Counted from the first letter of the stretch, positions 14,801 through 22,483 are shown. The stretch: 64,000 nt of DNA from Phoronis australis (GCA_002633005.1 NMRA01000115.1:878124-942123), one strand, 5' to 3'. Notes: generated by a model not told the origin, from the letters alone. Numbers and translations: made by a program.

Positions 14801-17800
14801 TTATATGTTCTTCAAACTACCTTGGTTTGTCTCCAAACTGAACTTTAAACTGATCCAGAGTCTGGTCCAATTCTTCTTGAGTGACCAGATAGCCACGGTC
14901 ATGGCACAACTGAAACAGAATATTAGGAGTCACATAATAACAGCTTGACTGACCAGACACTAACAGTCACAGTAAACAACTGAACGGCAATTCCGTGAAA
15001 ATTTCAACACTCAGACAACGAATTAAACTCATGACAATATTAACATTTTCTGGTCTCAACTGAAAGCCAGTCTCCCTAGTTTCAGGACCTACATTTCAAT
15101 TTCTCATAATGTTCAATTTCTTTTCTAAATGGACCCATTTTTGGGTGTCACTTGACTCTAGCAAATAACCATGGGATCATTTTGTCCTCTCTAGAAAACG
15201 CGTAATGGGTCATTTTTTCACGGAATCATTTTTATGCTACACTGGCCACACTCGACCGACAGTTAGATATGATGCAAAACGAGAAAATATGTTTTATAAA
15301 CTTCCCTTTGGATTAGATTAGTCCAACCCCCACTAACACCCCCCCCCCCACTCCCTAGATGCCTCTCCTCCGTATCCACTGATTGCAAGACCATTCACAC
15401 GCACACTAGCTACCATAACTCTGAATGACATGCCTAGTGATGTTGAAACTGTAAAGTGGAAGTCTCCCGTTATCTTGGGGTCACTTTTCGTCCTCTCGTG
15501 AATGTCAATTCGTTCGTGTTCGCGAAAATTTTTGTCCTCTCGCAAACGTGAGTTCGTTACCATTCGCGAGAAGACAATAGTTGTCCTTTTGTGAACGTGA
15601 GTTCGTTTGCCTTCATGAGAAGACAATATTTGTCCCAGTAAACAGCAAAATGACAAAACGCCTTTTAAACTTCCCTTTGGAATAGATGAGTCCACAGTGG
15701 CGGATCTAGGATATCACAAGGGGGGGGCAACATTTTGTCTATAAACATTTGCTCAAAGCACGGTAAAATAGATGCGCATAGCACCGAATGGGGGAAGGTA
15801 GAAAATTTTTCTGTTTTTTCCTCTACAAATCAAGCCTTTTCCTCGATTCCCGAAGTATTATCCAAGAAAAAAAAAGGCAAAAAAGGCAAAAAAACATGGA
15901 GAAAGTGTCTAACAGGAAAAACTGCAAGTACCACAGACTCGAACCAACGACCTGGCAGTTAGAGCGCGTGTGCTTTACCACCACGATTTAACTCTTAATT
16001 TGATACTAAGAGACCTACTTGTTTATGGTACACAGCGTTTGCGGGCGAAACCTCCTTCTTTTTGTAATGCTTATTACAGGTTTTATATTCAAAATAGTCT
16101 TCAATTGCCCAAAAGACCAAATCCGGTTTTTGTGTTGGCAATAATGACGAGATTGCTTTGGAAATCATCTTAAGTTAAGGTTTGACAAAGAGAGAATTAT
16201 GAGTTTCTGAGTGATTCACTAAGGCTTTGATTAAAATTGACATCTTACCAGCAGCTTCTGTTTTTTCATCATCACTCAGATTCCACTTTCTTTAAAAAAT
16301 GAAGTAATTTTCTTCATTGCACAGTGGAGCAGACGATGGAAACGGAGTCGTAATGCCCAGTGCCACTGCCGGTCGCCTGGGACATCGCGGGAGAGCATAT
16401 ACTTAGCCATGGTTCCGTTACGATTGCACCGTATTCCGAATTCGATACTTGAAATTGGATGTGAGCCCTCCCCAAACACTAAAACTGCACATATTTAAAT
16501 GTTGTTTCAGCCGTATTTATAATTTCAATTACTGGGGTTAAACACAACATTTTCCTACGCTCTTGCTGTTTTATTTTTTTTGCCAACCCCCCCCAAACCA
16601 CACACAAACTCCCTAGGTCCCCCCTACTCCGTGTCTGCTGATTGTACGACCAATGATATTGCCGGCACAGTAGGCCGTTTTCTTCACAGAGTCTTTATTT
16701 ATGCTACACTAACTGCACTTGACCAATAGATTGATATGATTTAATTAGCGGGAGTATACGAAAAACGACTTTTAAAGTTCCTTTGTTAAAATGAAACCAA
16801 CCTCTCCACACCCCCCACCCACACATCCCATTCCCTATATAGGTCCCCCCCTTCCGTATCTGCTGAATGCACGACCAACGATATTGTTCGTGCAACTGGT
16901 AATGTTTTACTGAGTCATTATTTATGTTACACTGGTCACTCTTGGCCGATATTTAGATATGACGTAATTAGCCGGCGAAATGACAAAACCTTTTTTAAAC
17001 TTCTCATTTAAACTAAGTGCAAGTCTTGCGTTTTCTTGGGTTCATTTTTGTTTGTTCGCGAGAAGACAACATTTGTCCTCCTGTGAACATGAGTTCATTG
17101 GTGGATATATTGGATTGATGGAAAACGCTCAGAAGGTGAACACATAATTTGTTGAGTATCTTCTCAAATGTTATTGATTTCATTCAGGAAAAGGTGAGTG
17201 TGAAGTGGTGCGCCTGATTCAGTAGATCTGCAGGGAATTGTATATTACAGCACTTTATTTTATTGTTTAGGCATGTAGTAAATGTCGACGTCAGTCTCGG
17301 CTGTGGCGTCTCTATGTTGTGATGTCCTTTTCGTGACAATGTTGGTCTTGGCCTGGTGCGACATCTAACGCCAGAAGAGCCCAGCCGAGGTCACACTCCT
17401 ATCACGTGACGAGTCACCCATGAAGACCACGTGACAAGATCGTCTGGGCCTTCTGGAGTTCGCTGCCGTCCTGTGCGGACGCAATATGAGTATTCTCCAG
17501 ACTTTGCTCTTGCACCGTGTTAATAGGCCCGAACTTGTGTGTCCTCTTGGCCAACCGACTCCCCACTAATACAACATTTGGCGTAGTCGGCACCTGTTTC
17601 CCGGTGTTGGAGAGGCGTGCGTGTCTTTCGGTGGTGGCGGGAAATAAGTTTTCATAACTTGTTTTCTCGTGCCCATTTTGACAGCCACGTGCGTCACTGC
17701 TTTTGCAGTGCCTGAGTTCAGGTGTACAAGTATTTCAAGCGTTTTGCGTTAGTGTAGGGTAGCAGTTGTAGATATATTGTAAATAGTTATTTGTATAATT

Positions 17801-22483: not shown

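Follow-up and report, generated by a model that had tools for sequence, protein, structure and literature searches.

A multi-copy gypsy-type LTR element of Phoronis australis that lacks pol and carries gag and a predicted TatD nuclease gene

We analysed a window of 64,000 nt from the Phoronis australis assembly (GCA_002633005.1 NMRA01000115.1:878124-942123), and all coordinates below are positions in this window. Between two copies of a short target-site duplication, it contains an LTR retroelement with the following features.

17270..17273, no strand: left target-site duplication, 4 bp, GGCA
17274..17576, + strand: 5' LTR, 303 bp, TG...CA
17579..17592, + strand: primer-binding site, 14 nt, beginning 2 nt past the 5' LTR
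17920..19359, + strand: gag, 479 aa, with a weak N-terminal HhH-like motif, a capsid-like (PNMA) region and a CCHC knuckle at 19228
19326..19332, + strand: slippery heptamer TTTAAAC in the X XXY YYZ register with gag, a predicted -1 frameshift site
19326..21029, + strand: ORF2, in the -1 frame relative to gag, 567 codons, linker plus TatD; predicted Gag fusion of ~1036 aa
19339..19368, + strand: predicted hairpin with an 8-bp stem, 6 nt past the slip site
19360..20183, + strand: linker, open in the ORF2 frame only, with no Pfam match and no confident fold
20184..21026, + strand: class II (HxH) TatD domain, with ORF2 residues H291, H293, E393, H434, H468, E517 and D519 present
21030..21886, + strand: AT-rich 3' non-coding region without a long ORF
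21887..21900, + strand: polypurine tract, 14 nt, abutting the 3' LTR
21901..22203, + strand: 3' LTR, 303 bp, 99% identical to the 5' LTR
22204..22207, no strand: right target-site duplication, 4 bp, GGCA

The original prediction had described a complete LTR element, and all of the parts that it named, namely the two LTRs, the GGCA duplication, the primer-binding site and the polypurine tract, were indeed found. The two LTRs differ by 3 mismatches over 303 bp and both have TG...CA ends. A 4-mer such as GGCA has a chance match of 1/256, but it was found at both exact LTR ends; a 5-bp duplication was also considered, and was rejected in favour of 4 bp. Furthermore, a DNA contig from X4, possibly the source sample, corresponds to 22163-23087 and spans the right LTR-flank junction with 0 differences, indicating that this junction is not an assembly artefact. 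We take the primer-binding site to be of the tRNA-Ser type. The insertion site at 22204-22212 forms a short inverted repeat (the duplication, one base and its reverse complement), probably by chance. Sites of the E-box type, CACGTGAC, are concentrated in the LTRs and the leader (17403-17435, 17874-17883 and 22030-22062), with 7 of the 8 matches in the window lying inside the element, where 1.3 would be expected per window. Elsewhere in the window, a dispersed repeat occupies 32862-33170, 50133-53766 and 62462-63634 at a spacing of 140-450 bp, and within it a 14-nt motif that resembles the CTCF binding consensus matches 19 times on the same strand (0.04 expected). A fragment at 7480-8016 resembles the zinc-binding part at the C-terminus of a LINE reverse transcriptase (zf-RVT, E 0.019), and assembly gaps (N) lie outside the element at 25686-26114 and 38538, with CA-rich microsatellites alongside.

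The element has only two long plus-strand ORFs, gag and ORF2, both uninterrupted and the latter in the pol position, as had been read from the sequence. The Pfam matches of Gag lie below the cut-off of that database (PNMA, E 3.6e-5; zf-CCHC, E 0.021), and the protein matches the Gag of the complete gypsy element L002 up to the terminal L-N-E motif (BLASTP E 9e-23); these weak matches and the homology to L002 together identify a gag with capsid and nucleocapsid regions. The HhH-like hint is present in the L002 Gag as well (E 0.028). Among 4605 candidates, 0 Gag homologues were obtained at E 0.001, and no Gag was found in viral contigs. The heptamer TTTAAAC also stands at the gag/pol junctions of L002 and L009, two of the relatives described below. 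The hairpin behind it scores modestly, with z -2.35 over 68 nt (8 of 200 shuffles equal or better) and z -1.62 over 98 nt in the window; in L002 a 9-bp stem of other sequence stands at an equal spacing from the slip site (z -1.19), and the slip-site region of L009 folds differently from both. We thus consider it likely that ORF2 is expressed as a Gag-TatD fusion by -1 frameshifting.

We then investigated the two parts of ORF2. No Pfam domain was found in the linker, and a single-sequence model of the whole ORF2 was poor (pLDDT 42). The linker contains 0 stops in the ORF2 frame versus 12 and 32 in the other frames (chance 2.5e-6), and 98 codons run without a stop from the end of gag to the first ORF2 methionine (chance ~0.01); in all, three Met codons, at 110, 205 and 249, precede TatD. 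Its start resembles the pol-frame start of L002 and L009. Near its end, at 20073-20090, it carries the T-Y/F-A motif of ORF3 proteins (T-Y-A in the window), 39 aa ahead of DxHxH. Such a T/S-Y/F-A motif, at most 80 aa ahead of DxHxH, occurs in 10 of 101 homologues, six of which belong to the sub-clade of the window TatD. The stretch just ahead of TatD is basic (20% K+R).

The remainder of ORF2 matched TatD_DNase with E 5.3e-28 (aa 288-566), the sole Pfam domain of this ORF, which together with a TatD-like predicted fold upholds the earlier reading of ORF2 as a linker plus TatD. The HxH, Glu, His, His and ExD metal-site residues do not vary across alignments of 23 and of 50 sequences, and a TatD model from the 50-row alignment reached pLDDT 92. 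This model superimposed on YcfH-type TatD with Z 27.8-28.1 and rmsd 2.7 A over 245-249 residues (Foldseek E 1.9e-15), at a sequence identity to YcfH of 23-24%. A profile of the family likewise ranked YcfH first (E 2.7e-37), followed by YjjV (E 7e-19) and human TATDN1 and TATDN3 (both E ~1e-13). In the available text of PMC10085689, class II TatD proteins are defined by an HxH motif plus a metal site of Glu, His, His and Asp, and TatD and YcfH are described as 3'-5' exonucleases preferring ssDNA and as AP endonucleases on dsDNA. The domain in the window is, by its HxH motif, metal-site residues and modelled TIM-barrel fold, a member of the class II TatD family with predicted nuclease activity. 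One family member, P0185, carries a TATDN2 annotation, a lead towards TATDN2 ancestry of the window TatD, which was placed in a tree holding no host TATDN row.

In contrast to L002, in which pol is present in the order PR-RT-RH-IN, the window element has no pol in this order. A motif scan of all six frames of the element for PR, YxDD, HHCC and GPY/F gave none. In addition, when the whole Pol of a relative was searched against the window, the best match had E 2.5 by tblastn, and against the six frames E 0.23 by phmmer. Both searches were thus empty, in agreement with the original claim that PR, RT, RH and IN are lacking, and the element is a derivative, not an autonomous member of Ty3/gypsy.

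To place the TatD gene, we collected its homologues. Two protein searches gave 1 and 23 matches, and a full HMMER search gave 481 proteins (E <=1e-10), the best 150 of them listed. The named homologues are from Mya, Mytilus, Mactra, Pinctada and Lytechinus, and among the matches listed none exceeds 41-44% identity to the window TatD. A single-sequence TatD scan of metagenomes gave no match, and viral-contig scans gave 4 and 6 weak TatD matches (E 1e-13 or weaker). By score, at least 5 of 80 metagenome loci and at least 1 of 80 genome loci listed were of retro type. Six such loci were fetched (L001, L002, L003, L004, L009 and L085), with L001 and L003 too short for pol, and in four of them (L002, L004, L009 and L085) IN-PHD is followed by a TatD ORF. 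L002, a circular contig of 9035 bp with a 99-bp terminal overlap, contains, in order, gag, TTTAAAC, PR-RT-RH-IN-PHD, a stop, a separate TatD ORF in another frame, PPT, LTR and PBS. In L004, pol likewise ends at IN-PHD and ORF3 lies in another frame; the TatD ORF is broken in L009 and L085. In relatives, ORF3 starts with its own ATG. In its PPT end and LTR start the window element resembles both L001 and L002, and its first 7 LTR bases recur in L002. A conserved domain upstream of TatD in ORF3, profiled from a seed of 64 homologues, is present in 99 of 166 homologues and absent in the window (E 2.0).

A FastTree tree was computed from 147 rows (TatD domains of at least 225 aa; proteins up to P0075 plus six more). 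In this tree, which left out every second bacterial locus and held no host TATDN row, the window TatD fell inside a 78-row clade (SH 98) of retroelement type, apart from the 68 bacterial rows, thus answering the comparison with bacterial TatD that had been proposed at the outset; its branch is long (1.22). Since relatives carry IN-PHD and a separate TatD ORF3, the nuclease was inherited with the element, not newly captured. The original prediction had offered, as an alternative to a nonautonomous element, an in-frame deletion derivative of an autonomous gypsy lineage with TatD at the C-terminus of Pol. The deletion is upheld as the likely origin; the C-terminal position was rejected, because in both L002 and L004 pol stops after IN-PHD and another frame holds ORF3. 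The two alternatives do not exclude each other, as a deletion derivative may afterwards have multiplied into a non-autonomous family. An origin by deletion from a TatD-ORF3 gypsy lineage, jointly with non-autonomy, is thus very probable. The deleted segment would extend from the spacer where pol begins as far as the spacer that immediately precedes TatD in ORF3; PR, RT, RH, IN, PHD and the N-terminal ORF3 domains would have gone with it, and TatD would have ended up in the frameshift frame.

Several observations concern the relatives themselves. The locus L085:1-11388, filed under a Sedimenticola MAG, contains gypsy IN-PHD and a broken TatD ORF and has a 3008-bp terminal repeat, with no match to gag or RT in this locus, and the 'Sedimenticola TatD' proteins P0002, P0026, P0032 and P0171 are likely host retroelement contamination. 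Four further proteins, P0158, P0132, P0149 and P0166, form a well-supported retro-type TatD sub-clade that lacks the usual upstream domain, and in P0158 an RRM (E 2e-12) is fused to TatD.

The abundance of the element was then examined in five sequencing runs that contain the stretch, all from one study and two samples, four of which contain half or more of its words. In X4, contigs of the unique flank had depths of 5.6 and 7.9, and contigs of the element had depths of 118 (19033-19345), 85 (19316-19673) and 224 (20503-20937), that is, ~11-21 fold above the flank for the junction and linker and 28-40 fold for TatD, where contig depths do not equal copy numbers and no single record spans from the junction to TatD. 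In X1, from the second sample, 30 of 30 bins of 19000-21300 were covered at depth 52-158, and contigs over the junction, the linker end and TatD had depths of 41-52. The element is therefore multi-copy and not a one-off, and its target-site duplication, its LTR identity of 99% and the contig depths indicate, indirectly, that it was amplified as a unit without a pol of its own. An autonomous helper was not found in the read contigs of this organism, where the sole candidates seen were contigs of low depth. These diverge upstream of 19974 and 20033 (one of the 19974 set is listed at depth 6.9), and those of the 19974 set may represent relatives with a full ORF3.

RNA reads were also present, with ~18-19% of each RNA run examined. 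In X8, first mates lay on the minus strand only from 18008 to 20266, at an even depth (5.6-11.6) over gag, linker and TatD; these reads are sense RNA, provided that the library follows the common stranded protocol. In X6 and X7 reads ran both ways, and antisense-type reads were more numerous over the 3' half. An RNA joint from the leader was not seen among the rows listed. X8 also contained opposite-direction reads over 20309-20847. Reads and contigs of X1, X6 and X8 further revealed a second derivative, in which an LTR-like end and PBS are joined to mid-TatD at 20333-20334, and further TatD deletions occur at 20367 and at 20428-20537 (X1 depth 33). The second derivative resembles an amplified mini-element without coding capacity that belongs to a related subfamily, and it may give rise to antisense RNA.

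We next compared the copies with one another. We classed 41 coding differences, some of them clustered, from the best 40 of 798 and the best 40 of 362 rows by support. As a result, 9 of 10 differences in TatD were synonymous (expected fraction 0.24-0.30; p 2e-5 to 1.4e-4), versus 7 of 23 in the linker (p 0.35-0.59), and gag gave 5 of 8 (p 0.02-0.05). The TatD differences sit on high-depth contigs in 9 of 10 cases. As to selection on TatD among copies, a check that had been suggested, this synonymous excess supports purifying selection. Some of the listed insertions and deletions in the linker keep the frame (+3 at 20036-37, -6 at 20145-50, and net -150 and -66), and frame-breaking ones occur in less abundant copies (19444, 19500 and 19649 in X1, at depth 7-18; 20790 in 13 of 29 X6 reads). 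RT or IN remnants, a single copy, neutral evolution of TatD and an ORF2 without a TatD profile match had been named as findings that would speak against the original prediction, and none of these was observed. Its interpretation holds as regards a non-autonomous, multi-copy gypsy-type element with TatD in the frameshift frame and under purifying selection, and gives way as regards the exclusive alternatives and the Pol C-terminus.

Taken together, we favour, with some confidence, a multi-copy, transcribed element with gag and TatD but without pol, which originated from a TatD-ORF3 gypsy element, makes a Gag-TatD fusion and uses the Pol of a helper. In this scheme, -1 frameshifting would yield the fusion of ~1036 aa, and a helper would provide RT, RNase H, integrase and protease, recognising the retained PBS, PPT and LTR ends. 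Gag-Pol enters the particles of LTR elements. The fusion would similarly be packaged at a low, Gag-Pol-like ratio, so that the nuclease would accompany the RNA of the element that encodes it and act in cis. Its likeliest job would be 3'-5' trimming or clearing of ssDNA and RNA by-products and of abasic cDNA during reverse transcription. That TatD acts in or on the particle is a plausible suggestion, falling somewhat short of a firm preference, and the exact substrate is proposed with greater reserve. A non-autonomous element would be expected to drop whatever a helper can supply; that TatD was kept under selection while Pol was lost therefore points to cis action, as a tether to Gag would give, and cis action would in turn explain why Pol was dropped and TatD retained. 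More tentatively, the frameshift may be a device for loading the nuclease into the capsid, with the element being either a satellite-like parasite or one half of a two-part helper system. As a satellite, it would have Gag-TatD selected for cis action in mixed particles, where the fusion would clean or protect the cDNA of the element or else destroy helper nucleic acid packaged alongside; in a two-part system, the helper would give Pol and the window element the nuclease.

The same origin and non-autonomy would also be compatible with TatD made alone, from a spliced RNA or an internal start at Met 110, 205 or 249, and acting outside the particle, where it might clear R-loops at its own locus, or cytosolic cDNA or hybrids that alert host sensors. 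The own ATG of the relatives' ORF3, the three Met codons ahead of TatD in ORF2 and the basic stretch preceding the domain all fit such a protein. The profile ranking of YcfH far above TATDN1 and TATDN3 and the TATDN2 annotation of P0185 point the same way. TATDN2 degrades the RNA of hairpins and R-loops, not plain RNA-DNA hybrids, in the available text of PMC10711561. However, 98 open codons would precede the first possible start, the slip site and hairpin have been retained despite there being no pol to make, the depth of X8 is even with no leader joint among the rows listed, and a helper could lend a diffusible enzyme, as it does Pol. We therefore regard separate production of TatD as unlikely, and retain the Gag-TatD fusion as the preferred reading.

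A passenger TatD is less probable still, and we give it little weight. The domain would then be the by-product of a chance in-frame deletion that spread on gag and cis signals, kept intact through youth or through recombination with autonomous copies. The near-identical LTRs agree with youth, and the PBS-to-mid-TatD derivative and the TatD deletions indicate that broken TatD also spreads, but across the same copies the linker evolves at a neutral ratio and TatD does not, the TatD differences sit almost entirely on high-depth contigs, and all seven core residues are kept. Finally, direct capture of a host or bacterial TatD into the pol slot is very improbable, for although the N-terminal ORF3 domains of most relatives are missing and the window TatD is distant from every homologue among the matches listed, it nests in the retroelement clade and not with the bacterial rows, and its Gag, slip site, PPT and LTR start match those of TatD-ORF3 elements.

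The retention of TatD under selection after Pol was dropped suggests that the element itself profits from the nuclease, which a helper probably cannot simply supply. The element would also make a compact test case, with one frameshift and one soluble domain that has a confident model. In addition, many bivalve and sea-urchin genes named 'TatD' or 'TATDN2', or left uncharacterized, are likely retroelement-borne, an example being a 13-member TatD-type cluster at 90% identity in Mya arenaria, and a pol-less family of this kind would be missed by RT-based surveys.

Accessory nucleases of LTR retrotransposons have been known since the DEDDy case of rotifers, where selection was not shown. Juno and Vesta of bdelloid rotifers are Ty3/gypsy elements with a DEDDy 3'-5' exonuclease as ORF3, and, as described in the available text of PMC5408684, their nuclease is, as here, of cellular type with intact catalytic residues, with an auxiliary role in replication proposed. 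Their third-ORF nuclease slot, downstream of pol, is shared by the relatives L002, L004, L009 and L085, whereas the TatD of the window lies in the frameshift frame. They further differ in having a DEDDy fold and keeping pol, in contrast to the TatD TIM barrel and missing pol of the window element, and in showing no significant departure from neutrality within the genome according to the same text, in contrast to the synonymous excess of the window TatD. The non-autonomous rotifer family TelKA2n is described there as having lost most of pol by internal deletion and kept its third ORF, as here, but the env-like ORF that defines it is lacking in the window element. In plants, TR-GAG elements similarly have LTRs and a full gag without pol and were shown to transpose, presumably with the proteins of a helper, as stated in the available text of PMC8704663; they have a single ORF, whereas the animal element in the window has a second, conserved enzyme ORF of 567 codons. 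A TatD-bearing retrotransposon or a pol-less TatD layout was not found in the literature, with Repbase, Dfam and supplements outside the scope of that search; TatD is absent from the main text of the LTR surveys PMC6238403, PMC13524379 and PMC8220671, and is not among the LTR accessory domains, including the chromodomain and DnaQ exonuclease, given in the available text of PMC6338049.

As for TatD itself, the class II proteins (E. coli and S. aureus YcfH; human TATDN2 and TATDN3), as far as the available sources describe them, share the HxH motif, the Glu, the two His, the ExD and the fold with the window TatD, but this predicted nuclease belongs to a separate, retroelement-borne clade and has the low identity to YcfH given above. 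A further close system is the autonomous TatD-ORF3 gypsy clade of L002, L004, L009 and L085, which is alike in Gag type, TTTAAAC plus hairpin, PPT, LTR start and TatD clade, and differs in that PR-RT-RH-IN-PHD is kept and ORF3 stands alone, its N-terminal domains conserved. The window element is real, and, accessory nuclease ORFs being known from rotifers, its distinguishing trait is a pol-less layout that retains TatD.
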